From NCBI RefSeq assembly GCF_002282895.1, contig NZ_NRRB01000002.1, positions 531,676 to 555,675 of the forward strand: a DNA stretch of 24,000 bases, in the 5' to 3' direction. Position numbers and translations under genes: made by a program. Each line of letters opens with the position of its first letter. Position 1 is the first letter of the stretch. The notes under the pieces are model-generated. The model saw only the letters and a program-made list of their open reading frames with translations, searched no databases and was not told where the DNA came from. The DNA is from Paraferrimonas haliotis (lineage in GTDB: Bacteria > Pseudomonadota > Gammaproteobacteria > Enterobacterales > Shewanellaceae). Shown here piece by piece: positions 8,596 through 24,000 of the stretch.

Positions 8596-10119
8596 ATGAC
8601 TTACCTAGTCGCTACCTGTGTGTCCTTGTTGCTCGGCCCGTTGTTTTATCGATTTTTCGGGCAGCAAAATGGCATTACTAAAGCCATTGATGGTTTTGTA
8701 TTTGTCACGCTCGGTGGTTTATTACTGACCCACATTCTACCCGAGATGCTACACCACGGTGGCATCGCTGCTTTGGCGATGATATTGCTGGGTTTATTTG
8801 GCCCCACCGTGAGTGAACGCGCCTTTGCCAAACATTCTCAGCTTACCCATAACATCACCGTGTTATTGGCGTTCTTTGGCTTGCTGTTACACACGTTTAT
8901 CGATGGCACCAGCATTTCCATATCCACTCATGATGACGCCATTGGCGCTTATTTGCCCATTGGAATCATTTTACATCGATTGCCGGAAGGGCTCGCTATT
9001 TGGTGGTTACTGTCACCACAATTTGGTAATCGCTGGGCCAGTGTCGCCATTGCCGCCATGCTGACGGCAACCGTAGCAGGGTTTGGCGTCGGCGAGTTGT
9101 ACGCAAATCAATTGGCGTTCGACAACACGGTACTGTTGCAGGCATTCGTAACCGGCAGCATATTGCACGTCATTCTGCACCAACCGCACGTTGACAAAAA
9201 CCATCATCCGCAGCCAAGCCACGACACCATGGCGGGCATTGGCAGCTTGTTGGGCTTGGCTCTACTCTTTGTATTATTCACGACCCACTCTCACGGCGGC
9301 CATGAACACCTCGAACATTCGAGTGTTGAGCAGTTATGGCAATTGATGCTGACGTTGGCTCCCTATGTGGTGCTAACCTACATCATTGGTGCGGCTCGAT
9401 TTGGCTTGGGGATGCTGTCGACCCAATCCAGCGGTCCCGCAGCATGGATACAGCGATTGATGGGGCCTGAGGGCTTAATTTTGGTGGCGATTGTTTTAGG
9501 CTGGCAACTGGCCTCATTTCAGCTCGTTGCAATTGCGGTCATTGTTGCTTGGCTATCCCATCAAAGCGTGCCATTAGACAGTCGAACCGAAATAGAGCGC
9601 TTTTCTCTACGCCAATTCGCTTTGCAGTACCAAATCGAACGGTCAGCGCCTTGGGTGTTATTAAGTTTAGTGTTGGCCAACTTAATGACCTACCCTGACA
9701 TTCTCGCCGACAAACCTTGGTTGCAACTTCTGCTTATTGTGGCACTGCTGCTGCCGATGCGTTTTTGTTTTATTGGCGCCGCAGTCTTAAGCATTAGCCT
9801 GGCGCTAACCGGCTGGAGCAGTGCCGCGGTCATGCTTCCACTGCTCGCCGCACCACTATTAAACGTTAAACAACTGTCTAAGATGAGCGGCCCTCAAGGC
9901 GCCATTACCATGGCGTTGGTTTTAGCCTTGGTGGTCATTGGCAGCCAAAGTCTGCCAAGCTTCGAACAGCATGCTGCACCAATACCCTACCTATCGCCCA
10001 TTAGCTTGGTGATATTGGCTTTGTTATTCGCCAGCACCTTGTTGCGCATTGGACCGCGAGCCTTCATCGCGAACCTATTCGCCGTGAGCCTTGCTCACAA
10101 ACACCACCATCACCACTAA
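8596..10119 (+). CDS. Polytopic His-rich membrane protein; N-terminal half ZIP-family-like metal permease, C-terminal half uncharacterised
   Basis: ZIP-like motifs LHTFIDG (HxxxDG) and LHRLPEGLAIWW (HxxPEGLA). His-rich loops HQPHVDKNHHPQPSHD and HSHGGHEHLEH. The C-terminus is HKHHHHH. About 12 or more hydrophobic segments. Confidence 0.55.
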   Translation: MTYLVATCVSLLLGPLFYRFFGQQNGITKAIDGFVFVTLGGLLLTHILPEMLHHGGIAALAMILLGLFGPTVSERAFAKHSQLTHNITVLLAFFGLLLHTFIDGTSISISTHDDAIGAYLPIGIILHRLPEGLAIWWLLSPQFGNRWASVAIAAMLTATVAGFGVGELYANQLAFDNTVLLQAFVTGSILHVILHQPHVDKNHHPQPSHDTMAGIGSLLGLALLFVLFTTHSHGGHEHLEHSSVEQLWQLMLTLAPYVVLTYIIGAARFGLGMLSTQSSGPAAWIQRLMGPEGLILVAIVLGWQLASFQLVAIAVIVAWLSHQSVPLDSRTEIERFSLRQFALQYQIERSAPWVLLSLVLANLMTYPDILADKPWLQLLLIVALLLPMRFCFIGAAVLSISLALTGWSSAAVMLPLLAAPLLNVKQLSKMSGPQGAITMALVLALVVIGSQSLPSFEQHAAPIPYLSPISLVILALLFASTLLRIGPRAFIANLFAVSLAHKHHHHH

Positions 10120-10121
10120 CT

Positions 10122-10892
10122 ATGTGCATCTTATTTGCAGCGCTTCAATGCCATCCCGAATACCCGTTAGTACTGGTGGCTAATCGCGATGAGTTTTATA
10201 CTCGCCCCAGCGCCAACGCACAATTTTGGTTGCCCGAGCGACAGCTGCTGGCAGGTCAAGACAGGCTTCAATTAGGCACCTGGCTTGGCGTGGATAGAGA
10301 GGGGCGAGTAGCTGCATTGACCAATCTGCGCAATGGTATTAAAGAAAAAAAACAAGGTCGATCCCGTGGCGATTTAGTGCTGAGAGCCATTACCAAGCCG
10401 GCCACGGTTGAAGACTACCTCACCCATCATGCTCATCAGTACAACGGCTTTAATTTGATGTTTGGCGACGCATCGGGGTTGAAGCTTTTTAACAGCGAAA
10501 GCAGAGCGTTACTCTCACTCGCACCAGGTTACCACGCCATATGCAACGGCCCGATCGAGCAGAAATGGCCGAAAATGGCGCAGGGAGAACGAGCTTTAGA
10601 AGCACTGCTGTCAACCCAAGCGACGATTAACATTGACGCCTTGTTAGCGTTAATGACCGACACCAGCATTGCGCCGGATGAGCAACTGCCCGCTACCGGT
10701 GTGAGCCTTGAGTGGGAGCGCAAACTGGCCAGTATTTTTGTGCAAACTGAGCATTACGGCACTCGCTGCACCAGCGTGTTATTGGTTGCCAAAAATGGTC
10801 GCATGACCTTTCACGAGCGTCGCTACAATCAACACGGCCTGGTGGCAGGCGACAGCCGCTTTTATTGGCACAATGCTTCTGAACTGCTGTGA
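10122..10892 (+). CDS. NRDE-family protein (DUF833 / TANGO2-like)
   Basis: N-terminal MCIL... and the eponymous ANRDEF motif. Length 256 aa. It starts 2 nt after the stop of the upstream membrane-protein gene. Confidence 0.75.
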   Translation: MCILFAALQCHPEYPLVLVANRDEFYTRPSANAQFWLPERQLLAGQDRLQLGTWLGVDREGRVAALTNLRNGIKEKKQGRSRGDLVLRAITKPATVEDYLTHHAHQYNGFNLMFGDASGLKLFNSESRALLSLAPGYHAICNGPIEQKWPKMAQGERALEALLSTQATINIDALLALMTDTSIAPDEQLPATGVSLEWERKLASIFVQTEHYGTRCTSVLLVAKNGRMTFHERRYNQHGLVAGDSRFYWHNASELL

Positions 10893-13207: not shown

Positions 13208-14251
13208 CTAGTTAACCACCTGATGGAAAAGGTTTTGCACTAAGTACAAGCCTAAAATGCAGATCAGCATAGAGATAAACGGCGTCACAATCCAACCCAC
13301 CACAATGCGGCCAATATTACTCCAAGTAATGCTCAGTCGGCGGTATAAGCCGATACCGATAACAGCGCCAATAACCGCTTGCGAGCTGGATACCGGAACC
13401 AATGGAATGGCTGGCAAACCAAGGCTTGCGACGAAGTTTGATAAGGTTACCGAAGAGAACACAAACAAGGTAATTGAATGAGCCATCACCACAACCCAAG
13501 CGGTCACCGGCGTCATCGGAATCAAACTGGAGCCTACGGTCATCATGACTTTCTTAGAGTATGTAAATACACCCACGGCAATGGCGACACCACCTAAGAA
13601 AAACAATTGCATGGTTGAAGTTACTGAGAAGCCCATCGTCGAAAAGCTTTCAAACGGGCTTGAGCTTACAAATACCCCCATTACGTTGGCAATGTTGTTG
13701 GCGCCTAAGCTGTATGCACCAAAGGCACCGGCACCAATTAAGCCAATGCGGGTCCAGTTATCCAACTGAAACAAACCAGGGCGCGCTTTTTCCAATCCAA
13801 TGGTAACCGCTTTATACAGTCCAACCGCAATAAAAGCACTGAGAATGGGGCAAATAACCCAAGTACTGACAATTTTGGTTAATACGGATGAATCAGTGAC
13901 TAGGTTGCTGAAAAAGTTCCAGCCAATAATAGCACCTACAATCGCTTGACCTGTGGACACAGGAATGCCAGCGCGGGTCATCACAAACACGGTAACCGCA
14001 GCGGATAGTGCCACGGTAAATGCGCCACCAATAGCTGAAACGCTCCCTAAGGCTCCCAGCGTATGAGAAGCGCCGGCACCACTAATAACGGCACCTAAAA
14101 TTACGAAAATCGAACAGATGATAGCGGCGGTTTTAAAGCGCACCATTTTGGAGCCGACCGCCGAACCAAACACGTTAGCGGCGTCGTTGGCTCCGAGTGA
14201 CCAGCCTAAGAACAGGCCACTGGATAAAAATATGAGCGTTGCAATATCCAT
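13208..14251 (-). CDS. Inorganic phosphate transporter, short PiT (PHO4) family
   Basis: Duplicated GANDxxN signature (GANDAANVFGSAVG near the N-terminus, LGANNIANVMG in the second half). A 347-aa polytopic protein immediately downstream of a DUF47 gene, the classic pairing (B. subtilis ykaA-pit). Confidence 0.85.
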   Translation of the reverse strand: MDIATLIFLSSGLFLGWSLGANDAANVFGSAVGSKMVRFKTAAIICSIFVILGAVISGAGASHTLGALGSVSAIGGAFTVALSAAVTVFVMTRAGIPVSTGQAIVGAIIGWNFFSNLVTDSSVLTKIVSTWVICPILSAFIAVGLYKAVTIGLEKARPGLFQLDNWTRIGLIGAGAFGAYSLGANNIANVMGVFVSSSPFESFSTMGFSVTSTMQLFFLGGVAIAVGVFTYSKKVMMTVGSSLIPMTPVTAWVVVMAHSITLFVFSSVTLSNFVASLGLPAIPLVPVSSSQAVIGAVIGIGLYRRLSITWSNIGRIVVGWIVTPFISMLICILGLYLVQNLFHQVVN

Positions 14252-14265
14252 TAGTTCCCCTGCGC

Positions 14266-14934
14266 TTACTGAGCGCGTTTAAGAGTGAAAATTGACACTC
14301 GGTCACTAATGTCTTCGGCTAAATTGGCCACTTGCTCTATACGGTCACAAAAGTATCGCAGCTGCACCTTATTGGTGAGCGGTAAATCGGTGTTAAAAAT
14401 GGTGGTTTTCACGCGCTGACAAGCATCGTCGCAATCGCTTTCAAACTCCATTACCTTTAGGTGGTATTCGTGAACACGCTGAAAATCCGAGAAGAAACTG
14501 CGAGTGCACAGTAAGGTATGGTCGACGGTATCGCCAACAACTTGTACAAAACTCAGCAATTGCTCATGAGCTTCTTCTGGTATCACAGGCTTTTCTATAA
14601 GCAAATGATTACCAATGGTTTCTTGCTTATTAATAACGCGGTCGATGCTTTCCACAAGGCTGGCGACATCGGAACGCATGTCAGGGATTAGGGTCTTCTT
14701 GTACAGATCCATTTCAATCTGACGGCGAAGCTTGTCGGCTTTTTTTTCAATTCGTCTTAAGTGTTCAAGGGTATCAGCAAAACGTTCGCTGTCGGCGCCA
14801 CTTTGCAAGTAGATTTGCCACAGCTGAAAAAACTTGTGTTGAGACAGAGTAACTTGGTCAAAAAAGGAAAATAGTAACCGCTCGGTAGAGTGGCTCTTAG
14901 ATAATAGGTTGTTGATTTTGCTGAAAGAGAGCAT
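14266..14934 (-). CDS. DUF47 (PhoU-like, Pit accessory) protein
   Basis: An all-helical ~222-aa protein located 14 nt upstream of the PiT gene. The ATG at 14934 has a GGAG Shine-Dalgarno; the track start at 15006 adds an implausible N-terminal extension. Confidence 0.7.
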   Translation of the reverse strand: MLSFSKINNLLSKSHSTERLLFSFFDQVTLSQHKFFQLWQIYLQSGADSERFADTLEHLRRIEKKADKLRRQIEMDLYKKTLIPDMRSDVASLVESIDRVINKQETIGNHLLIEKPVIPEEAHEQLLSFVQVVGDTVDHTLLCTRSFFSDFQRVHEYHLKVMEFESDCDDACQRVKTTIFNTDLPLTNKVQLRYFCDRIEQVANLAEDISDRVSIFTLKRAQ

Positions 14935-15046
14935 GTTTTTCTCCGGGCATTTCTCCATGAAATGATGATTAGCGATGAATGGAAAGTGACTTGAAAGCAT
15001 GAGCAAAGAGAGTTTGGGAGAAAGCCCTCATTTGCTCATGCTCGTC

Positions 15047-15067
15047 AAAAAAGCCACCGAAGTGGCT
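15047..15067 (-). terminator. Rho-independent terminator after the 277-aa secreted-protein gene
   Basis: The minus strand reads AGCCAC-UUCG-GUGGCU followed by UUUUU, 9 nt after the TAA stop. Confidence 0.7.
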
Positions 15068-15075
15068 CAATTGAT

Positions 15076-15909
15076 TTACTTATTGAAGCCTTTGCTTAAC
15101 TTGAAAGTAGCGCCGGTTTTAGAGCCAGTGTGCATGCCTTCTAGTAGGCCGATGCGCTCAACTTCTTGCTCAATGTGAGCAGCTGCTTCTGCTAGTAACT
15201 TGCTGTTAGAAGCGTGGCCTTTGAAGTTAAACTCACCGAAGTAGATGCGAGGTTTGCGGTACAATGGAGTCCAGTAAGCAAACTCAACTTCTAGGCTGTC
15301 AAAGCGGCTGTCTTTAAGCTGACCTTCCCACTCAAGAGCACGCATCACTTCAGTTTGGATGATCTTGCCTTTGTTGGCTTCGTAGATGTCTTTCACCAAG
15401 TTGTAAGCGGCACGGTTGTGAGCACGGATGGTGGCGAATACTTTATCAACGTCAACGTTTTTCACGTCAATGTCAGCTGAAGAGTATGGGATGTCCCAAG
15501 ATACGCCGTAAGCGTTTTTACCGGCAGTGATGTCGATTTCTGCTTTACGGTAGTTGCTTACCGCACCGAAAGCTTCAGGGTTGGCACCACGTAGCTTAAC
15601 GGTAATTTTAGTTTTGGTTTGGTTAGCCACGTTCTCACGAACACGGATAATCAACTCTGCTTTGTCGAACGCCATATCAGGCGTATCCAAGTAAGTAACT
15701 AGCTTGTGACCTTGCTTACTGGTGTAGGTCATGAAGTCAAAAGTATTTTCAAACGCAGCAGTACGAGAGTTAGTTGCGTAAGGTAGGGTTTTACCAACAC
15801 CGGTGTTGATGTGGTGCTCAATGCGGTTAAAGTCGCTTTCGCTTAACGCTAATGCGCTTGAACTTAGGCACAAACCTACAACAGCGCTCATGAGTTTTGC
15901 TAATTTCAT
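15076..15909 (-). CDS. Secreted protein of unknown function; candidate extracytoplasmic TTM/CYTH-like beta-barrel
   Basis: Sec signal peptide MKLAKLMSAVVGLCLSSSALA|LSE. Alternating charged-residue strands (YLDTPDMAFDKAELIIRVRE, KITVKLRG, KAEIDIT, MRALEWEG, LEVEFAYW, FGEFNFKG) resemble CYTH tunnel strands. The fold call is pattern-based only. Confidence 0.45.
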   Translation of the reverse strand: MKLAKLMSAVVGLCLSSSALALSESDFNRIEHHINTGVGKTLPYATNSRTAAFENTFDFMTYTSKQGHKLVTYLDTPDMAFDKAELIIRVRENVANQTKTKITVKLRGANPEAFGAVSNYRKAEIDITAGKNAYGVSWDIPYSSADIDVKNVDVDKVFATIRAHNRAAYNLVKDIYEANKGKIIQTEVMRALEWEGQLKDSRFDSLEVEFAYWTPLYRKPRIYFGEFNFKGHASNSKLLAEAAAHIEQEVERIGLLEGMHTGSKTGATFKLSKGFNK

Positions 15910-15943
15910 TGATAGTCCTTAATTCTAATTATATGTAATCGAT

Positions 15944-15978
15944 TTGCCGGTACAGCGCGTTTTTCGCTGTACCGGCAA
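15944..15978 (-). other. Perfect 14-bp stem-loop between the porin gene and the secreted-protein gene
   Basis: TTGCCGGTACAGCG (15944-15957) pairs with CGCTGTACCGGCAA (15965-15978) around a 7-nt loop. No U-tract follows it on the minus strand, so it is possibly an mRNA stabiliser or partial terminator. Confidence 0.6.
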
Positions 15979-15984
15979 AAATGC

Positions 15985-17328
15985 TTAGAAGTAGTAAGCC
16001 ATACGGAACTGATAGCTGCTGGTATCGAACTTGTCAGCATTGATAGCCGTTTGTACGTCTTGGTACTTAGCTTCAGCATGAACGTAGTTGAATTGAGCTT
16101 TTAGGTTGTGCTCTAAGTACCAGTTCAAACCAACAACCATAGTGGTTTGCTCACCACCTTTGATGTCTTTCATTGGATCCGCATCAGCAGAGTTCAAATC
16201 GATGTAGCTGTAACGAGCCGCCACTTCGAATGCACCCCAACCACCTTGAGAAATCGGGTTGTCTGGGCTAACTGCACGGAAGCCACCGTTACGAGCACGG
16301 TAAGTCCAAGATTCGCCAGTGAAGGTGTATGCTGCTTGAACGTTGAAACCGCCAAGGTTTACAGAATCGCCGTCGATACGGTCGATCATAGAGCCAACGT
16401 ACTCACCCATTACTAACAAGTTGCGGTATTGGTATGCAGCTTCTACGCCGTAGTTAATTTCAGACTTAGAATCGAACTTACCTGTGTTAACCATACGCTC
16501 ACCCCATTTGTGATCTGGGCGCGCACGGTAACGGGACTCTTGATTGTCATCGTTAAAGTGGTTGTATAAGGCACTTGCACCTAAGTGAACCAACTGGCTG
16601 TTGCTTTGGTAAACAGGAGAGGTAATGCGGAAGTTTGCTACTGCACCTTCTACTTCACCACCGTCGATGAAGTCATCTGCAAGGATGCTCGCACCAGCAC
16701 GGAAGTTAACTTTACCTGGGGCGTAACGCCATTCGATACCCACGTTACGGTCTGGAGCAAACTGGTCAAGCGCTGAACGTTCTAGGAACATGTTGTGCGC
16801 CGAGCTGTTAGTGCTTTCTAGACCAAAGGCGTATTTTTGGAAACCGAAGGTGATGCGGTTGTTTGGAATGGCGCGGTAAGCTACCAACGCATCTTTTAGA
16901 TCAACTTCGTTTTCTGCGAAGTCCATTTGCAATTCGTATTCCCAAACTTGGGCAAACTTACCTTCAACGCCTAAACGCAAGCGACGTAAGTTAACAGTTT
17001 CGTATCCTTCTACAACGCTGCCATTATCAACGTCTTTAGAACCGTCGTACTTGAATTGGTCGTCGGTGCTGGTGATATCCATGTGGATACGACCTTTCAG
17101 TTGAGTGGTAGAGCGACCGTCGGCTGATACTAATTCACCAGAAGGAGTGCTTGGCTTAAAGCGAACGCGGTCAACGCGTTGAGAAGCACTTTGAGCGTCA
17201 ATCATTTCACGCTCAAGCATATCAATACGCTCTTCCAGTTCAGTGATGGATGTTTCTGCCATTGCTGGAGTCACAGCAAATAGAGAGGCCGAAACGGCTA
17301 ATGCGATAGTGCTAATGGTTGTTTTCAT
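15985..17328 (-). CDS. Phosphate-selective porin O/P family outer-membrane protein
   Basis: Signal peptide MKTTISTIALAVSASLFAVTPAMA and an N-terminal coiled-coil (ITELEERIDMLEREM). LKGRIHMD and RRLRLGVEGKF..WEYELQMDF..DLKDALVAY are typical of Porin_O_P. The C-terminus is ...FRMAYYF. The ATG at 17328 has a GGAGG Shine-Dalgarno. Confidence 0.8.
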   Translation of the reverse strand: MKTTISTIALAVSASLFAVTPAMAETSITELEERIDMLEREMIDAQSASQRVDRVRFKPSTPSGELVSADGRSTTQLKGRIHMDITSTDDQFKYDGSKDVDNGSVVEGYETVNLRRLRLGVEGKFAQVWEYELQMDFAENEVDLKDALVAYRAIPNNRITFGFQKYAFGLESTNSSAHNMFLERSALDQFAPDRNVGIEWRYAPGKVNFRAGASILADDFIDGGEVEGAVANFRITSPVYQSNSQLVHLGASALYNHFNDDNQESRYRARPDHKWGERMVNTGKFDSKSEINYGVEAAYQYRNLLVMGEYVGSMIDRIDGDSVNLGGFNVQAAYTFTGESWTYRARNGGFRAVSPDNPISQGGWGAFEVAARYSYIDLNSADADPMKDIKGGEQTTMVVGLNWYLEHNLKAQFNYVHAEAKYQDVQTAINADKFDTSSYQFRMAYYF

Positions 17329-17572
17329 GTTAATCCTCCAAAGAAAACTTTTTATTGGGGACTGCATGTTCGATGGTTTGAATCGAAGCTTTAGGCCCCT
17401 TTTTTGTTCGGAAGTAAGACTAACCCTAGTGTTAACAAATAAATGTGATCCAGCTAACAAGTTTCAACCACATCTGACAATTTACACCTCAAAAAAACAA
17501 AATGATGACCTAGATCAAACTAACTCAAACATACGTTTAAACACGCCTAAAGCATTGATTTAAATAGGTAAT

Positions 17573-17615
17573 AAAAAAACCCCTGTTAAGAAATGGTAAC
17601 CATTAACTTAACAGG
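17573..17615 (-). terminator. Rho-independent terminator after the CYTH gene
   Basis: A 9-bp stem CCTGTTAAG / CTTAACAGG with an inner AATGGT/ACCATT extension. On the minus strand GGTTTTTTTAT follows it. Confidence 0.7.
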
Positions 17616-17657
17616 AGCTTTTTTAACAGATGAACTACTTAAAAGAAACTAAAGAAA

Positions 17658-18128
17658 TCACCAAGTGCTATAAGGTGCTTTCATTAACATTGAGTTATAG
17701 TATTTAGCATCACCGGTTACTTCTTCAGCTAACCAAGCTGGCTTAGCAACCGCTTGCTCTTCTGATTCTAACTCCACTTCGGCAACAATCAGTCCTTGGT
17801 TATCACCATAGAACTCATCAACCTCGAAGGTGTGACCTTCAAAGTCAACTAGGTAGCGAGTTTTATCAATAACGCCAGGTTCGCAGATTGCCAGCAATTC
17901 CTTCGCTTCCTCTACAGAGATTTGCTTTTCCCATTCGTAACGGCTCGCACCAGAAGCGCTTCCAATACCTTTAATGGTTAAAAAACCAGCCTCACCTTTA
18001 ATGCGAACACGAACCGTTCTTTCAGGTACGCTGCTTAGGTAGCCTTGAACGATACGCACGGACTTTTTTGAAATCGCAGAAAAGTCGGTAGGCTGAACTA
18101 AATACTTGCGTTCAATTTCTTGTGCCAT
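17658..18128 (-). CDS. CYTH-domain protein (triphosphate tunnel metalloenzyme, NeuTTM/CthTTM-like)
   Basis: Canonical N-terminal EIERKYLV (ExExK). Also VRVRIKG, LTIKG, RYEWEK, KTRYLV, FEVDEF, VAEVELESE and a C-terminal W. AGGAGA Shine-Dalgarno. Confidence 0.85.
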   Translation of the reverse strand: MAQEIERKYLVQPTDFSAISKKSVRIVQGYLSSVPERTVRVRIKGEAGFLTIKGIGSASGASRYEWEKQISVEEAKELLAICEPGVIDKTRYLVDFEGHTFEVDEFYGDNQGLIVAEVELESEEQAVAKPAWLAEEVTGDAKYYNSMLMKAPYSTW

Positions 18129-18138
18129 GGGTGTTCTC

Positions 18139-18777
18139 CTAGTTTGCCAGCTTTGCTGATTTCATGCCGATAACACGTTTGATTACTTGTAGGTAATTGA
18201 TGTTTTCAACACCTTCAAGTTTAACGTCTTTAATGGTTTTTTGAATGTCTTCCAGTTCGGTTGATTCGCTGTTAATAGAAACCACTTTTGCCCCATTTAT
18301 CAAGACGTTAGCAACTTCACAGATGGTGTTATTAACCATATAACCGAAACGTTCTTTATGAACGCTAACCGCTTGCAAGTCAGGGTGCGCGTCAATCAGT
18401 GCAATGAACTCATCGTAGCTGTAGCTGTCCTGGTTTAGCTCAGGCATATCGACCATGAATGCAGGGAATACTTCATCAACCAATTGTGCTTTTGAGATAG
18501 GGAATTCAGCTTTTAGTTTAGGATCCCACTGTTCGAGACCATCAACTGTCGTCACGTAGGTTTTAACGTCCATTTTACCGTCACGGATCTTGGTATTATT
18601 TAAATCGTTAGTACGAGACATGATGTAGATTTCATCACTTTGACGGTGCCAAACTTTCTCTGGAACGGGGGCTGACAGGCGAGCCATACGGGCAGCGGCT
18701 TCATCAAAGTTTTGACCGAAACTGCGGAACTCAAAGCGCGGCTTGGAAACTTCACCAATTTTTAACTCAGACATCAT
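18139..18777 (-). CDS. Hypothetical protein; possible degenerate CYTH/TTM-like paralog
   Basis: A 212-aa protein ending 10 nt upstream of the CYTH gene. Its strand pattern is RFEFRSF, EIYIMS, TKIRDGKMDVKTYV, HKERFGYMV, CEVANVLI, VVSINSES. This mirrors the CYTH strand order, but several acidic positions are replaced. AAGGA Shine-Dalgarno; the start could be 18777 or 18774. Confidence 0.35.
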   Translation of the reverse strand: MMSELKIGEVSKPRFEFRSFGQNFDEAAARMARLSAPVPEKVWHRQSDEIYIMSRTNDLNNTKIRDGKMDVKTYVTTVDGLEQWDPKLKAEFPISKAQLVDEVFPAFMVDMPELNQDSYSYDEFIALIDAHPDLQAVSVHKERFGYMVNNTICEVANVLINGAKVVSINSESTELEDIQKTIKDVKLEGVENINYLQVIKRVIGMKSAKLAN

Positions 18778-19099
18778 AAATCCTTAAAAAAATATTATCG
18801 TTGTGTTCAGTTGCCGCTCATCTTACGGATGCAATCATAAAAAAAAATGGATCTCGATCATGTTTTCGAGCTAAAAGTTTTTACCTAATCTTACATTCAC
18901 GCTCAATAGGCTCGTCAACTAATTGTTATAACGTTTTGATTTTTAATAGATTAGCAAATAAATTTGGTTGCGAAAAAATTTTCACGCCTACGATCACGTC
19001 AACGCTTGTCGCAATTAGGTTGATCTAGCTCCGGTTTTTTTTGTTGGCATACAGGTAAATTTGCCTCAGAAAAATGAAATAGCTCCTGGAAGTAACACA

Positions 19100-20686
19100 A
19101 TGACAACTAAGAATTACGACCCGCTCGATATGAGCCAACATCGGATGGAAACCCTCCCGATTCGACAAAAAAGCTCCTTCGAACAATGGTTGGCAAAATC
19201 TGGATTATGGATTGCCCTTGCGGTATTCATAGCAATAATGTGTACCGAAATCAGCTACTTAACTAACATCAATCCAGATGATTTAGGTAAGAATGCACTG
19301 GCCCACTTCAATGAAGTTGGCTCCGAGCTGTTTGCACGACACGGTGTGGCCATGCTCGCCATTTTCTGTGCGGCACTGGTGTTATGGGTATCGGAAGCCA
19401 TTCCTAATTATTTAACATCTTTGATCGTAATTATTGCAATGGTGTTAACGGGCGTGTTGCCAGAACGTACAGCATACGCTCAATTGGGCCATCCTATTAT
19501 GTGGCTTAACATCTTGTCCTTTGTGCTGGCATCCATGTTGGTTGCCTGCGGTGCAGCGAAGCGCTTCGCTCTTTGGTTCATTTGTCGTTTCGGTAAAAGT
19601 GCGACCCCGATTTTCTACAGCTTCATGTTAGTGAATATGGTGTTGTCAGCATTTATTTCAGCTACCACGGCCAAAGCCGCGATTTTAATGCCTATTTTTA
19701 TGGTTATTGCTGCCGTTTATGGTGCTCGAGGCGGTGACAATAAGAACAACTTTGGCCGTAACTTGGTTTTGCAGAACCTGCTGCAAATTAATCTCTGTGC
19801 CGGTGCTTTTGTTACCGGTTCTGGCGCAAACTTGTTAGCTGCCAGTTTAATCATTGGTGCCGGTGGTGCGTTATATTTCACCGATTGGATGGTGGTCGCC
19901 TTCCCAATTGTTGTGTGTATGATTGTTATCGGTTGGCTGCTTGGTACTCGAATTTTCTTCCCGCTCGCCAAAGAAGAGCGCTTGCCGCAAATTGAAGGTG
20001 GGATGGAGCGCTTGCAACAAGAGCTGGACAAGATGGGTAAGATTTCATTTAACGAAATCAAATCAATCGTTATCTTTGTGACCATTCTAGCCTTTTGGGC
20101 AACCGATAAATATCACGGCGTGAGCGCAACTGCGGTTGCCTTTATTGGCGCCATTGTCGCGTTATTTCCTCGTATTGGTGTGGTTAACTGGAACGACTTA
20201 GACATTCCTTGGCATCTACTGATTTTCTCAGCGGGCGCTTACACCCTAGGCGCTGGTTTCCGTCAAACTGATTTGCCGAGTTTATCGGTTAACGCGGGAG
20301 TCGAATACTTTGGGTTGAGCATGGATACACCGTTTTGGGTCTTTTACGTAGCCCTTACCGGAGCCATGATTTTCAGTTCATTGATATTCCAGTCGAAAAC
20401 CATGCGAACCATGCTGTTTATTCCTATCGCCATCGGCATTGCCGATCGCTTTGGCTTCTCCATGATGAGTTTAGCCCTGCCGGTCGCATTGCTTATTGAA
20501 CACGTTTACGTTTTACCGTTTAATAGTAAGCCTGCACTGCTGTGTTACTCCACCGACCACTACAGTTTGTCGGATACCTTCAAGTTCGGATTTACGATGT
20601 TGGTCATTGCGTGGTTTACCAGTATATTGTTTGGCGAAACATGGTTTAAGTGGCTTGGCTACGTACCGAACGGCGTATTCTACTAG
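19100..20686 (+). CDS. DASS/SLC13-family (ion transporter superfamily) anion permease
   Basis: A ~528-aa polytopic protein with two-fold repeat architecture. Hairpin-like segments FISATTAKAAILMPI and VLPFNSKPALL sit where DASS proteins carry SNT / TPPN motifs. I preferred the ATG at 19100 over the TTG at 19061. Confidence 0.65.
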   Translation: MTTKNYDPLDMSQHRMETLPIRQKSSFEQWLAKSGLWIALAVFIAIMCTEISYLTNINPDDLGKNALAHFNEVGSELFARHGVAMLAIFCAALVLWVSEAIPNYLTSLIVIIAMVLTGVLPERTAYAQLGHPIMWLNILSFVLASMLVACGAAKRFALWFICRFGKSATPIFYSFMLVNMVLSAFISATTAKAAILMPIFMVIAAVYGARGGDNKNNFGRNLVLQNLLQINLCAGAFVTGSGANLLAASLIIGAGGALYFTDWMVVAFPIVVCMIVIGWLLGTRIFFPLAKEERLPQIEGGMERLQQELDKMGKISFNEIKSIVIFVTILAFWATDKYHGVSATAVAFIGAIVALFPRIGVVNWNDLDIPWHLLIFSAGAYTLGAGFRQTDLPSLSVNAGVEYFGLSMDTPFWVFYVALTGAMIFSSLIFQSKTMRTMLFIPIAIGIADRFGFSMMSLALPVALLIEHVYVLPFNSKPALLCYSTDHYSLSDTFKFGFTMLVIAWFTSILFGETWFKWLGYVPNGVFY

Positions 20687-20699: not shown

Positions 20700-21716
20700 A
20701 TGAACTCTAAAAGAAATAAAGCGGACATTCGTAATAAATTGGCTCTTCTGCAATTAGCAGAAGAGCTCAATAGCATCAGTAAAGCCTGCGACATTATGGG
20801 CTACAGTCGCGATAGCTATTACCGATTCAAAAAGCAATACGAAGCGGCAGGTGAACTTGGGCTGCACAATTTATCCCGCACCAAACCGGCGATAAAAAAT
20901 CGCGTTGACCGTAAATTGGAAGAGCAGGTGATAGAAATTGCTCTGGATTACCCAGATTACGGCCAAGCCAAAGCCGCTGATGTACTAACCGCTCGCGGAA
21001 ACACCATTTCCCCGAGTGGCGTTCGTTCTATTTGGAAGCGCCACAACTTAGAGACTAAGAAACTGCGGCTATTTGCTCAGCAAGTTGCCGCAGCACAACA
21101 ACTGAGTCAGTCGAAATCTAGTGACGAGAGCGATATCTTTTTAAAAGACTCGCTGGAGTTAGGCTGTCGCTATCCCGGTGATATCTGCATTCAAGACACC
21201 TTTTCGTTGGGAAGTATCGACGGCTTAGGCGCTTTGTATCAGCACACCTTTCTCGACGGTTACAGTCAGTTTGCCGTTGCCACCATTTCTTTGTTTAAAG
21301 ACGCACCAACCGCTGCTTACTTTCTCTCGCACCAAGTGATTCATCAACTGAATCAGCAAGAGTTAACTATTAACCAACTGTTGACGGATAAAGGTAAGGA
21401 GTTTTTTGGCAGCGCAAGTCAATCCTTTCAATCGACTGTAGCGCATCTGAACATCAAGCACTTCCATAAACGTGCCTATAACGGCCCGGTTGTTAATGGT
21501 CTTGCGGCGCGTTTTCACAAACTCATGTGGGACGAATTTTACGAGCCGTCACTCAAATCGAAACGCTATCTTCACATTTCGGAGCTTGAGTCTGATATGC
21601 AAGCCTGGCTAGCCCGCTACAATCGACAATTTGCCATAGCCGGTCGTTACACACTGGGCAAAACCCCCTTGGAAACCATAGAGCTCACCCGTCACCTGCG
21701 CAACCATTTTCAATAA
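20700..21716 (+). CDS. IS481-like transposase/integrase-core homolog with an apparently incomplete DDE triad
   Basis: N-terminal HTH region (ISKACDIMGYSRDSYYRFKKQYEAAGELGL...YGQAKAADVL..RG..ISPSGVRSIWKRHNL). rve-like core with IQDTF (D1) and LLTDKGKEF (D2), but PVVNGLAARFH where the family has PQTNGxxERFH. The gene ends in a double stop, TAA TAG. Confidence 0.7.
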   Translation: MNSKRNKADIRNKLALLQLAEELNSISKACDIMGYSRDSYYRFKKQYEAAGELGLHNLSRTKPAIKNRVDRKLEEQVIEIALDYPDYGQAKAADVLTARGNTISPSGVRSIWKRHNLETKKLRLFAQQVAAAQQLSQSKSSDESDIFLKDSLELGCRYPGDICIQDTFSLGSIDGLGALYQHTFLDGYSQFAVATISLFKDAPTAAYFLSHQVIHQLNQQELTINQLLTDKGKEFFGSASQSFQSTVAHLNIKHFHKRAYNGPVVNGLAARFHKLMWDEFYEPSLKSKRYLHISELESDMQAWLARYNRQFAIAGRYTLGKTPLETIELTRHLRNHFQ

Positions 21717-21824: not shown

Positions 21825-21838
21825 CTGATCCAGATCAA
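21825..21838. promoter_or_regulatory. FNR/CRP-family binding site candidate upstream of nrdD
   Basis: CTGAT-CCAG-ATCAA matches TTGAT-N4-ATCAA at 9 of 10 positions. A weaker site, TTGAT-CATC-ACTAA, lies at 21809-21822. nrdD is FNR-activated in E. coli. Confidence 0.5.
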
Positions 21839-21955: not shown

Positions 21956-24000
21956 ATGAAACCGGTTGTGATTAAAAGAGATGGATACCGGGTTCCCTTC
22001 GATGCCAGCCGCATTCGAGATGCCGTTGCTGCTGCAGCAAAATCGGCCGGAACCTCAGTCAATGGATACGCTGACCAAATCGCACGTAACATTGAACTTC
22101 AAGTGGATGGCCAAGAACAGATACACATTCATGAGTTGCAGCTGCTGGTTGAAAACCAACTCATGGACGGCGAAGACAAGCGTGTGGCTCGCAGCTACAT
22201 TGAATATCGTCACGACCGTGATACAGCCCGTGAGAAAAACAGCCGTCTCAGTAAAGAGATTCAAGGCTTGGTTGAGCAAAGCAATGCCAGCTTACTTAAC
22301 GAGAACGCCAATAAAGACTCTAAGGTGATTCCTACTCAGCGGGATTTACTCGCCGGCATCGTCGCGAAGCACTATGCGAAAAACTACATGCTGCCAAAGG
22401 ATGTGGTTAGAGCCCACGAAATGGGTGAAATCCATTACCACGACTTGGATTACGCCCCGTTTTTCCCAATGTTTAACTGCATGCTGATTGACTTAGAAGG
22501 CATGTTGACCGGCGGCTTTAAAATGGGTAACGCCGAAATCGACTCGCCAAAATCTATTTCGACTGCGACGGCAGTAACGGCGCAAATCATTGCTCAGGTG
22601 GCCAGCCACATATACGGCGGCACCACCATCAACCGCATCGACGAAGTGCTGGCGCCTTACGTCACCGCATCTTATGACAAACATGTTGCTACAGCTGAGC
22701 AATGGCAAGTTGCCGACACCAAAGCATTTGCAATGGCACAAACCGAAAAAGAGTGTCACGACGCCTTCCAGTCATTGGAATACGAAGTCAACACTCTGCA
22801 TACCGCCAATGGTCAAACCCCGTTTGTTACCTTTGGCTTTGGCTTGGGTACCAGTTGGCAGTCTCGCTTGATTCAAAAGTCGATATTGCAAATTCGTCAA
22901 GAAGGGTTAGGAACCAATAAAAAGACAGCGGTCTTCCCCAAACTGGTATTTGCTATTAAAAATGGTGTTAACCATAAGGCTGGCGATTGCAATTACGACA
23001 TTAAGCAAATGGCGCTTGAGTGTGCAACTCAGCGTATGTACCCAGACATTCTTAACTATGAACAAGTTGAGCGCATAACCGGCTCGTTCAAAACCCCAAT
23101 GGGATGCCGCAGCTTCCTATCGGCCTATGAAGAAAACGGCGAGCTTAAACACGAAGGCCGTAATAACCTGGGTGTTGTCAGCTTGAACCTGCCTCGCGTT
23201 GCTATGGAAGCGAGCGGCGATGAAACGGCTTTCTATAAAATTTTAGACGGTCGCCTTGCCGTTGCTAAGCGTGGACTGCAAAGTCGCATTGAGCGTTTAG
23301 ATGGGGTTCGCGCTCGGGTAGCGCCCATCTTATACATGGAAGGTGCCTGCGGTGTGCGCTTAAAAGCCGATGACCCCATTTCTGACATCTTTAAGCACGG
23401 CCGCGCCTCTATCTCGTTGGGTTATATTGGCTTGCATGAAACCGTCAATGCGCTCTACGGCACCGAGCAGCACGTGTATGACAGCGAAACCTTAAGAGAA
23501 AAAGCCATCGAAATTATTCGCTACCTGAAAAAAGCCACCGAAGCTTGGAAGGCGGAAACCGGCTATGGCTACAGCTTGTATTCAACCCCAAGCGAAAACC
23601 TTTGTACCCGTTTTTGTTCCATTGATGCGAAAGAATTTGGTGTTGTTGACGGGGTTACAGACAAAGGCTACTACACCAACAGCTTCCACTTAGATGTTGA
23701 AAAGAAGGTCAATCCTTTCGATAAAATTGACTTCGAAAAGCCTTACCCAGAGCTAACCACCGGCGGTTTTATTTGTTACGGCGAATACCCGAACATGAAA
23801 CATAACGTAGAAGCGCTGGAAGACGTTTGGGATTACAGCTTTAAGCACGTGCCTTACTATGGAACCAATACCCCAATCGACGAATGCTACGATTGCGGCT
23901 TCACAGGTGAGTTTGATTGCACCTCGAAAGGCTTTGTGTGCCCAAGTTGCGGTAACAACGATACCTCTAGAGTCTCTGTAACTCGTCGTGTTTGCGGCTA
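21956..24000 (+). CDS. nrdD: Anaerobic ribonucleoside-triphosphate reductase (class III RNR), 3' end outside the window
   Basis: Manual translation of frame 2 from the ATG at 21956 (GGAG Shine-Dalgarno): MKPVVIKRDGYRVPF (ATP-cone), LLNENANKDSKVIPTQRDLLAGIVAKHY, HYHDLDY, FKMGNAEIDSPKSISTATAVTAQIIAQVASHIYGGTTINRIDEVLAPY, PMGCRSF, GRNNLGVVSLNLPR. The Zn-ribbon CPSCG and the glycyl-radical motif RRVCGY sit at the window edge. It is absent from the ORF track because no stop codon lies in the window. Confidence 0.95.
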   Translation, partial: MKPVVIKRDGYRVPFDASRIRDAVAAAAKSAGTSVNGYADQIARNIELQVDGQEQIHIHELQLLVENQLMDGEDKRVARSYIEYRHDRDTAREKNSRLSKEIQGLVEQSNASLLNENANKDSKVIPTQRDLLAGIVAKHYAKNYMLPKDVVRAHEMGEIHYHDLDYAPFFPMFNCMLIDLEGMLTGGFKMGNAEIDSPKSISTATAVTAQIIAQVASHIYGGTTINRIDEVLAPYVTASYDKHVATAEQWQVADTKAFAMAQTEKECHDAFQSLEYEVNTLHTANGQTPFVTFGFGLGTSWQSRLIQKSILQIRQEGLGTNKKTAVFPKLVFAIKNGVNHKAGDCNYDIKQMALECATQRMYPDILNYEQVERITGSFKTPMGCRSFLSAYEENGELKHEGRNNLGVVSLNLPRVAMEASGDETAFYKILDGRLAVAKRGLQSRIERLDGVRARVAPILYMEGACGVRLKADDPISDIFKHGRASISLGYIGLHETVNALYGTEQHVYDSETLREKAIEIIRYLKKATEAWKAETGYGYSLYSTPSENLCTRFCSIDAKEFGVVDGVTDKGYYTNSFHLDVEKKVNPFDKIDFEKPYPELTTGGFICYGEYPNMKHNVEALEDVWDYSFKHVPYYGTNTPIDECYDCGFTGEFDCTSKGFVCPSCGNNDTSRVSVTRRVCG

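Follow-up and report, generated by a model that had tools for sequence, protein, structure and literature searches.

A phosphate-themed gene cluster of Paraferrimonas haliotis built around exceptionally conserved proteins of predicted triphosphate tunnel metalloenzyme fold

Introduction

What does a bacterium gain from a locus that joins an outer-membrane anion porin, an exported protein of the triphosphate tunnel metalloenzyme (TTM) fold, two cytoplasmic proteins of the same fold and a set of anion transporters? The question was raised by a stretch of 24,000 nt from Paraferrimonas haliotis (NZ_NRRB01000002.1, 531,676-555,675; hereafter the window), in which an initial annotation covering positions 13,208-20,686 had proposed a locus for condensed-phosphate uptake and hydrolysis. 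We found that the cluster is real, conserved across phyla and apparently undescribed. It is most likely a phosphate-acquisition locus built round exceptionally conserved TTM proteins. Its carriers are bacteria able to live without oxygen, which, judging from the sequences, would most likely take up and split pyrophosphate, triphosphate or short polyphosphate.

Results

The cluster is conserved across phyla

Open reading frame (ORF) analysis of the window found the seven cluster genes at the coordinates and on the strands initially assigned to them. They are given here together with a terminator lying between them.

13208..14251, minus strand: short PiT/PHO4 permease, 347 aa (Pfam PHO4, E=1.6e-52)
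14266..15006, minus strand: DUF47/PhoU_div protein, partner of PiT (Pfam PhoU_div, E=3e-24; TIGR00153, E=1.4e-27), probable start ~14934
15076..15909, minus strand: p277, exported protein of predicted TTM fold, 277 aa (sub-threshold Pfam CYTH match, AlphaFold2 model and Foldseek)
15985..17460, minus strand: Porin_O_P outer-membrane anion porin (Pfam, E=3e-51), probable start 17328 (MKTTIS...)
17572..17625, minus strand: intrinsic terminator between CYTH and porin genes (hairpin of -26 kcal/mol, z=-6.5, then a U-run)
17658..18128, minus strand: CYTH156, NeuTTM-like CYTH/TTM protein, 156 aa (Pfam CYTH, E=2.5e-15)
18139..18777, minus strand: p212, unannotated protein of predicted TTM fold, 212 aa (no Pfam or NCBIfam match; AlphaFold2 model and Foldseek)
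19061..20686, plus strand: DASS/SLC13-family permease (Pfam Na_sulph_symp, E=4e-51)

The six minus-strand genes had been described as one co-directional group. Because the strong terminator follows CYTH156, they are better read as two transcription units, p212-CYTH156 and porin-p277-DUF47-PiT. Homolog lengths and the signal peptide indicate that the true starts of the porin and DUF47 genes are probably the internal methionines listed above. The spacer between p212 and the divergent DASS gene measures 283 bp to the TTG start of the latter and 322 bp to its first in-frame ATG (19100).

Among 71 clustered loci drawn from one genome per species, 60-70 shared the gene set, and the gene order is conserved far beyond chance. 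The predicted linkage of porin, p277, DUF47, PiT and the CYTH pair was thus borne out over genera and phyla, with DASS linked to them as well, and was stronger than expected. No account of the cluster was found in the literature searched on it and its components.

Genes were counted in loci of at least 8 kb. In the tight family (67 loci) CYTH adjoined p212 in all 67, and DASS was present in 66, Porin_O_P in 65, the membrane protein u486 in 41 and MgtC in 18. The divergent branch (23 loci), in which p212 is 37-51% identical, had CYTH beside p212 in 23 loci, DASS in 14, Porin_O_P and the exported TTM family c11 in 7 each, and TctA in 5. Across the whole divergent branch CYTH adjoined p212 in 74 of 80 loci; the p212-CYTH pairing is obligate. 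The typical order in Bacteroidota was DUF47, PiT fused to a LuxR-type helix-turn-helix (HTH), porin, Lamin-tail-domain (LTD) lipoprotein, p212, CYTH, sometimes a phytase-like propeller, DASS and u486. The last of these is a protein of 450-490 aa with a central transmembrane (TM) hairpin and no Pfam family (L027:13477-14940, L001:4098-5450, L082:3801-5183 and L164:10258-11718 in our set of loci). It was absent from Shewanella frigidimarina, from Colwellia and from the P. haliotis window, where only 197 bp lie between CYTH156 and the porin gene.

A plasmid of Citrobacter freundii carries a LysR gene, CYTH (47% identical), a p212-like gene (33%), DASS (43%, retaining the variant motifs) and a homolog of u486 (E=5e-48). 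Since the plasmid carries those four, we take CYTH, p212, DASS and u486 as the deep core of the cluster. Around it, porin, PiT, DUF47 and the exported proteins form outer layers that are lineage-specific. The porin, p277 and PiT genes are therefore not the evolutionary core, and the initial annotation had underestimated p212, CYTH and DASS.

Neighbours in other lineages included an exported inorganic pyrophosphatase, an H+-translocating pyrophosphatase (H+-PPase), a DHH/DHHA2 protein, a fusion of a Na/Pi-cotransporter with PhoU, and MgtC. These reinforce the phosphate theme first noted for the P. haliotis locus. Chemotaxis proteins were also seen beside the cluster. A methyl-accepting chemotaxis protein adjoins it in several Shewanella-type loci (L001-L003, c34; e.g. 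L002:16827-18605, with dCache confirmed for L002), and in Desulfospira a protein with HAMP and MCPsignal domains (L081:5936-7867) lies directly next to it. These proteins may mediate chemotaxis toward the cluster substrate.

p212 is an exceptionally conserved partner of CYTH156

p212 had no match in Pfam or NCBIfam scans. Its relatives nevertheless comprise 3,343 clusters at 90% identity, with at least 574 matches in the one-genome-per-species set. The carriers are mostly gut and rumen Bacteroidales, Rikenellaceae and Chitinophagaceae, along with Shewanella, Ferrimonas, Colwellia and Crenobacter. Homologs were 74-85% identical to the window protein throughout, with ~75% between Bacteroidota and Gammaproteobacteria, and 86 of the 212 alignment columns were invariant. 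CYTH156 was 66-79% identical across phyla. Conservation of p212, CYTH156 and DASS is at a level that we would liken to that of core translation factors.

Recent horizontal transfer was considered as the source of the ~75% identity between phyla and excluded. Third-codon-position identity was 0.31-0.48 in every pair, even within Shewanella, showing that synonymous sites are saturated, and the GC content of third positions tracked each host, from 0.25 to 0.66. Conservation of p212 and CYTH156 thus reflects purifying selection rather than recent transfer. There were no phage matches, and plasmid matches were limited to two distant ones.

An AlphaFold2 model of p212, built on the family alignment, reached a mean confidence (pLDDT) of 86.9. 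Searched with Foldseek against the PDB it gave 52 matches at E<=1e-3, with TTM enzymes first and the Mediator subunits Med18/20 lower. The best matches of p212 and p277 had E ~1e-6, probability 1.0 and TM-scores of 0.4-0.67. The top matches of the two proteins included thiamine triphosphatase, AtTTM3, class IV adenylyl cyclases, SaTTM, YgiF and Vtc4, and lower ranks included RNA triphosphatases. By its model, p212 is an eight-stranded TTM barrel. Sequence comparison gave no such signal: hhalign of p212 against the CYTH156 family returned a probability of 0.2, with no significant similarity, and PDB sequence profile searches with p212 and p277 returned no match. As the three families are not detectably related by sequence, TTM membership of p212 and p277 rests on fold.

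TTM hydrolases carry an ExExK motif whose glutamates form the catalytic metal site, whilst basic residues replace them in the polymerase Vtc4 (PMC4641920). The first strand of p212 reads R14-F-E16-F-R18 instead of ExExK, and this R-x-E-x-R motif is invariant across the superfamily. Other predicted tunnel residues are also invariant superfamily-wide (K/R, D/K, K-x-R and two Glu); the tunnel positions of the basic K/R pairs and of the two glutamates on C-terminal strands were assigned from strand positions rather than coordinates. An exhaustive HMMER search extended the superfamily to 1,263 clusters, at 50% identity, of proteins of ~200 aa. Ten members were scanned and none scored above any Pfam cutoff, whilst all kept the predicted tunnel residues. 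One high-GC member of 417 aa (P0313) runs into a stretch resembling the N-terminus of Ppx/GppA (VLDVGTNSIKF...) and may be a fusion or an adjacent gene. Given a weak Ppx-GppA match (E=0.016) in a frame-degraded tail, the fusion was not relied on.

CYTH156 is a canonical member of its family (Pfam CYTH, 57.2 bits against a cutoff of 23.2), in agreement with its initial assignment as a triphosphatase-type CYTH gene. Its closest PDB relatives are structures of NE1496/NeuTTM (3typ, 2fbl), aligned end to end with E=8e-18. Fifteen orthologs share invariant E4, E6, K8, R40/R42, K53, K89/R91 and E117/E119, in line with the acidic and basic tunnel residues set out in PMC4641920. The ExExK motif is kept, and Y30 and K53 align with the Tyr28/Lys52 dyad of NeuTTM, a dyad reported for this specific tripolyphosphatase (PPPase) (PMC3440374). 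CYTH156 is thus closest to NeuTTM and is a predicted PPPase.

p277 is an exported TTM-fold protein in a restricted set of lineages

The AlphaFold2 model of p277 had a pLDDT of 92.8 and a predicted TM-score (pTM) of 0.87, with a low-confidence N-terminal helix at the signal-peptide region. Its top 37 PDB matches in Foldseek were mostly TTM/CYTH proteins (thiamine triphosphatase, AtTTM3, class IV cyclases, SaTTM, YgiF and Vtc4), with E from 8e-7 to 1e-3. The fold of p277 is that of a TTM barrel according to the model; the TTM-like character first ascribed to p277 and p212 is thus upheld by structure comparison. The Pfam CYTH match of p277 remained below threshold (E=0.071; 13.4 bits against a cutoff of 23.2), and hhalign against CYTH156 found no significant similarity. 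The distant exported homolog family c11 matches Pfam CYTH at E=3.8e-4 (20.8 bits), which offers a weak transitive link between p277 and CYTH.

The full ExExK acidic patch is absent from p277, in which only E31 of the first strand is invariant (E-Y-x-x-N). Other conserved residues are R89/R91, K105/R107, E124/D126 and D139. At its N-terminus a basic n-region and a hydrophobic core accompany the site A21-L22 (AxA|L), which is invariant in 31 homologs, and the peptide ends ALA|LS. These features predict export via a Sec-type signal peptide. The p277 family comprised 63 clusters from gammaproteobacteria, Desulfobacterales and a sulfur-oxidising endosymbiont, and p277 is a lineage-restricted accessory of the cluster. 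It directly followed the porin in 14 of 14 loci examined (gammaproteobacteria, Desulfobacterales, the endosymbiont and a metagenome-assembled genome). The Desulfospira locus has another exported TTM-like protein after p277, then an inorganic pyrophosphatase bearing a signal peptide, and a DHH/DHHA2 protein nearby.

Several other exported or p277-related proteins were noted. A 608-aa protein ~1 kb 3' of PiT in Shewanella canadensis and S. atlantica (L005:17698-19524, L007:17838-19664) has a p277-like domain (hmmsearch, E=4e-37) and an unannotated N-terminal region. A 277-aa ORF between porin and p212 in Cloacibacterium was considered as a p277 ortholog and rejected; it is an unrelated LTD lipoprotein. 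Lipoproteins of this type occupy, in Bacteroidota, the slot that p277 holds in gammaproteobacteria (L027:9124-9957, L016:9154-9990, L059:7599-9179). They carry acidic residues after the lipobox cysteine (C-V-K/E-D-E) and may be surface-exposed. Finally, in divergent loci of the order c11-p212-CYTH-DASS, the DASS gene is preceded or followed by c15 (L098, L128, L138, L150, L153; e.g. L138:7074-7922), which encodes conserved exported proteins of 240-300 aa that are anchored by a C-terminal TM segment and belong to no Pfam family.

Transporters around the p212-CYTH pair point to import of a charged anion

The DASS permease scored 174.9 bits against the Pfam Na_sulph_symp cutoff of 27 and fell just below the cutoff of NCBIfam TIGR00785 (193.8 against 198.6). 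Its nearest PDB relatives are the chloroplast exchangers DiT1/DiT2.1, with NaCT and VcINDY also matched. The canonical SNT and (T/S)PPNA motifs at the hairpin tips of this family bind Na+ and substrate. In 77 cluster-associated DASS proteins they are replaced by the conserved motifs FISATT(A/V)KA and LPFNSKPA, in which SATT(A/V)KA and FNSKPA take the places of the canonical tips, each bearing an invariant basic residue. By sequence these motifs resemble those of exchanger-type DASS proteins rather than of Na+ symporters. Identity across phyla was unusually high, at 52-80%.

In divergent loci DASS is replaced or accompanied by a tripartite tricarboxylate transporter (TctCBA, with LysR) or by an ATP-binding cassette (ABC) importer dependent on a solute-binding protein (SBP). 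The swapping of importer types around a constant p212-CYTH pair speaks for an imported anion, small and highly charged, as the substrate of the pair. The SBP dependence of the substitutes argues for import rather than export.

Such an anion need not be a condensed phosphate. The substrate could be another small polyanion such as citrate or metal-citrate, sulfate, inositol phosphate, or extracellular nucleotide or thiamine triphosphate, with the TTM proteins processing or sensing the compound or a by-product. The nearest solved DASS relatives are dicarboxylate exchangers, the alternative importers of the divergent loci are of tricarboxylate and Fe/sulfate type, and 9-14 Bacteroidota loci contain phytase-like beta-propellers. 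Thiamine triphosphate and nucleoside triphosphates are also substrates of TTM enzymes, and the best, sub-cutoff NCBIfam match of PiT is a sulfate permease. FNR-type control, proposed below for this cluster, is typical of anaerobic carboxylate transporters. The clusters nevertheless hold no recurrent carboxylate-, sulfur- or inositol-catabolic genes. Their recurrent neighbours are specific to orthophosphate (Pi) and pyrophosphate (PPi), namely PiT/DUF47, Na/Pi-PhoU, three kinds of pyrophosphatase and MgtC, and CYTH156 retains the residues of an enzyme specific for inorganic tripolyphosphate (PPPi). We therefore regard a different polyanion as possible but unlikely.

The direction of transport bears on a further alternative, in which the TTM pair polymerises phosphate from ATP and threads the polymer through DASS/u486 to the periplasm, where p277 and the porin process or release it. 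The yeast VTC complex places a catalytic TTM (Vtc4) and TTM-like subunits on a membrane channel. Vtc4 structures are among the Foldseek matches, and p212, with R-x-E-x-R in place of E-x-E-x-K, recalls the basic patch of Vtc4 (PMC4641920). The deep core likewise consists of two TTM proteins and two membrane proteins. As the SBP-dependent importers that replace or accompany DASS imply import, CYTH156 retains a full hydrolase-type acidic patch and the cluster has no SPX-like or ATP-grasp partner, synthesis and export of this kind appear highly improbable.

The outer layers include a Porin_O_P-family porin and a PiT-DUF47 pair

The Porin_O_P match covered 350 residues with 175.3 bits against a cutoff of 20.9. 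DUF47 adjoined PiT in the gammaproteobacterial, Bacteroidota and Desulfobacterales loci examined, and most tight-family loci held both. Identity of PiT was 70-75% for Shewanella loci and, in some loci of Bacteroidota, 52-57%. PiT scored far below the cutoffs of the NCBIfam PitA and CysP models, with the CysP sulfate permease as best sub-cutoff match. In most Bacteroidota the PiT ortholog is fused to a C-terminal LuxR/GerE HTH, giving a protein of ~535-585 aa (L027:6043-7701, L016:6151-7755 and ~50 other loci), and in rumen Bacteroidales its PHO4 domain is degenerate beyond Pfam detection. This suggests that the fusion is a transporter-derived one-component sensor.

A sensor of this kind raises the question of whether the whole cluster is a module for phosphate homeostasis or signalling. 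In such a module p212-CYTH would make or destroy a signal (cAMP, PPPi or one derived from polyphosphate) that gates DASS and PiT, with PiT/DUF47 as sensor-regulator. The transceptor-like fusion with its often degenerate PHO4 domain favours this, as do the PhoU-like nature of DUF47, the adenylyl cyclase activity of some CYTH proteins and the extreme conservation of p212, CYTH and DASS, which suits a tightly interacting regulatory complex. CYTH156 is however closest to a PPPase without cyclase activity, and no recurrent cNMP-binding or effector protein was found in the clusters. The outer-membrane porin, exported TTM proteins and exported pyrophosphatase fit an extracellular substrate best. A purely signalling role is thus doubtful.

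Conserved operators suggest anaerobic rather than PhoB control

The initial annotation had predicted PhoB-dependent expression. We found no Pho box (CTGTCAT-N4-CTGTCAT) in the promoters of the window; the sole match was intragenic, with three mismatches, at chance level. A different set of sites was present, listed here with the genes that follow the cluster.

17505..17518, no strand: FNR-type box ATGACCTAGATCAA, 5' of the porin operon (two mismatches to TTGAT-N4-ATCAA)
18848..18861, no strand: FNR-type box, p212-promoter-proximal (centre ~77 bp 5' of the p212 ATG)
18883..18895, minus strand: conserved box TGTAAGATTAGGT in the p212 promoter region (near-invariant in nine aligned gammaproteobacterial loci)
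19020..19033, no strand: FNR-type box TTGATCTAGCTCCG, DASS-promoter-proximal, degenerate here (position conserved; better match in Shewanella loci)
20700..21716, plus strand: IS481-like gene with HTH and rve domains, 13 bp 3' of DASS (NCBIfam IS481, 179.2 against a cutoff of 224)
21825..21838, plus strand: near-perfect FNR box CTGATCCAGATCAA, 5' of nrdD, of the same type as the conserved operators of the cluster
21956..24000, continuing beyond the window end, plus strand: nrdD, anaerobic ribonucleotide reductase (NCBIfam, E=0)

Two copies of TTGATC-NN-GATCAA lie in the divergent p212/DASS region of all 11 gammaproteobacterial loci (11/11). They are 170 bp apart, exactly so in Shewanella-type loci, and each is centred ~75 bp 5' of a start codon. 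The motif fits the FNR consensus TTGATnnnnATCAA, with two to three mismatches in the window copies. The DASS-proximal box forms a 22-nt inverted repeat with an arm at 18839-18860. Two further copies occur in this window, one 5' of the porin operon and the other 5' of nrdD. The porin-operon box is more weakly supported than those of the divergent region because an equivalent was found in only one other locus (L001). In E. coli nrdD is an FNR-bound and FNR-activated operon (PMC3688515).

Since the motif fits the FNR consensus and also precedes the FNR target nrdD, our best guess is that gammaproteobacterial-type loci are under anaerobic control by FNR/EtrA (CRP-FNR family). Such control fits the distribution of the family in anaerobes and facultative anaerobes. 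With no Pho box, and with conserved operators that fit an FNR-type consensus instead, PhoB dependence is doubtful.

The box TGTAAGATTAGGT occurs exactly once in the window and lies between two FNR-type sites. It was considered as a relic terminal repeat of IS481, and this was dropped as there was no second copy and no flanking inverted repeats. The IS481-like gene itself is syntenic at 53-62% identity in nine gammaproteobacterial (Shewanella-type) loci and lies inside the cluster in an unrelated metagenome-assembled genome (L083). In 7 of 7 homologs aligned, the glutamate of the DDE triad has given way to Ala (His in L083), and a search for terminal inverted repeats of the gene was negative. 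It looks like a domesticated, apparently catalytically dead transposase and may be a candidate regulator of the cluster.

The remainder of the window

The flanking genes are housekeeping genes (men genes, rpoH, ftsYEX, an MscS-like channel and nrdD). A 507-aa ORF without a Pfam match (8596-10119, plus strand) lies directly 5' of a TANGO2-family gene (10122-10892). An Rfam scan of the window gave no match, and a sigma-70 promoter scan was uninformative, with 5 sites against 13.8 expected.

Discussion

Our preferred reading is that the locus serves envelope-spanning acquisition of condensed inorganic phosphate (pyrophosphate, tripolyphosphate and short polyphosphate), with uptake coupled to hydrolysis. 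Judged from gene content and predicted folds, we give it a probability of roughly 0.5. It draws on the porin family, the PiT/DUF47 pair, the NeuTTM-like enzyme, the pyrophosphatase and Na/Pi-PhoU neighbours and the swapping of importers. In the proposed mechanism the Porin_O_P channel would admit the polyanion through the outer membrane, and p277 would bind or cleave it in the periplasm. Freed orthophosphate would enter by PiT, with DUF47 as accessory or regulator, whilst intact PPi or PPPi would cross the inner membrane by the DASS permease. In the cytoplasm, CYTH156 and its obligate partner p212 would hydrolyse the phosphoanhydride, probably as a complex. Expression in gammaproteobacterial-type loci would probably be driven by an FNR/EtrA-type regulator under anaerobic conditions, not by PhoB.

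Several points weigh against this reading. No significant sequence-level similarity ties p212 and p277 to CYTH, with pairwise hhalign probabilities among the three families of at most 0.3. Neither has a full ExExK acidic patch, so one or both may be binders and not enzymes. The substrates known to us for DASS, TctABC and FbpABC-like ABC systems are carboxylates, sulfate or iron, not phosphates. The absence of a Pho box is unexpected for a phosphorus-scavenging system, and the window lacks u486, part of the deep core elsewhere. The EF-Tu-like conservation of p212, CYTH156 and DASS is unexplained by a simple hydrolase role. Finally, evidence for PPPi in living cells is reported to be very scarce (PMC3440374).

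A bolder form of the reading is a tentative one that we consider unlikely to hold in full. Here p212 and CYTH156 would form an obligate hetero-TTM docked on the exchanger-type DASS (with u486 where it occurs), a vectorial machine for import and hydrolysis of PPi/PPPi that is switched on by FNR under anoxia and uses phosphoanhydrides as phosphorus source and as an energy currency at the level of PPi. If true, anaerobes and facultative anaerobes such as gut Bacteroidales, sulfate reducers and Shewanella would harvest environmental phosphoanhydrides, an unrecognised mode of nutrient and energy acquisition, and bacterial PPPases would gain a first physiological role.

Condensed-phosphate acquisition, if true, would mean that these compounds are taken up intact and not only hydrolysed outside the cell. 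What PPPi, and specific bacterial triphosphatases like NeuTTM, do in cell physiology has yet to be settled (PMC3440374). The cluster sets a NeuTTM-like enzyme in a testable transport context and defines three protein families without a Pfam model: p212, the exported TTM p277/c11 and the membrane protein u486. The extreme conservation of p212, CYTH156 and DASS implies an important unstudied function in a family abundant in gut and rumen Bacteroidales and marine sediment bacteria. The Citrobacter freundii plasmid with its four-gene core provides a genetically tractable test bed.

Comparison with known systems

NeuTTM of Nitrosomonas europaea (NE1496) shares with CYTH156 a length of ~155 aa, the ExExK motif and equivalents of Tyr28/Lys52. 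The CYTH156 subfamily is far more constrained, as its identity across phyla indicates, and CYTH156 always adjoins p212 and usually DASS; NeuTTM was compared by protein only. For NeuTTM itself, no partner or context of this kind is known to us. E. coli YgiF, a CYTH-CHAD tripolyphosphatase that binds PPPi, also has the TTM fold of the cluster proteins. It differs in being a single two-domain cytoplasmic protein with CHAD, accompanied neither by a partner TTM nor by transporter or porin genes; a Pfam scan found no CHAD domain in the locus. Yeast VTC (Vtc4, Vtc2/3 and channel) resembles the p212-CYTH pair in combining canonical and non-canonical TTM proteins with membrane proteins, and the fold of Vtc4 matches. 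It differs in being eukaryotic and in making and exporting polyphosphate into an organelle, whereas for the cluster import and hydrolysis are favoured. No sequence homology with VTC was detected, and the cluster has no SPX.

Among transporters, the symporters VcINDY and NaCT, the exchangers DiT1, CitT and LaINDY, and yeast Pho87/90/91 belong to the same DASS/SLC13 family as the cluster permease. The latter stands apart by its variant hairpin tips with basic residues, the lack of an SPX domain and its higher conservation across phyla. Known PiT and DUF47 pairs, which serve low-affinity Pi transport, share both families and their adjacency with the cluster. Here, however, the two genes belong to a larger conserved cluster, and in Bacteroidota PiT is fused to LuxR and often degenerate. 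Lastly, OprP and OprO of Pseudomonas aeruginosa, selective for phosphate and pyrophosphate, belong to the PhoB regulon and to the same Pfam family as the cluster porin, which is likewise expected to provide an anion-selective route through the outer membrane. Unlike them, the cluster porin has FNR-type boxes in place of a Pho box, and it is always followed by an exported TTM protein (gammaproteobacteria and Desulfobacterales) or by an LTD lipoprotein (Bacteroidota).

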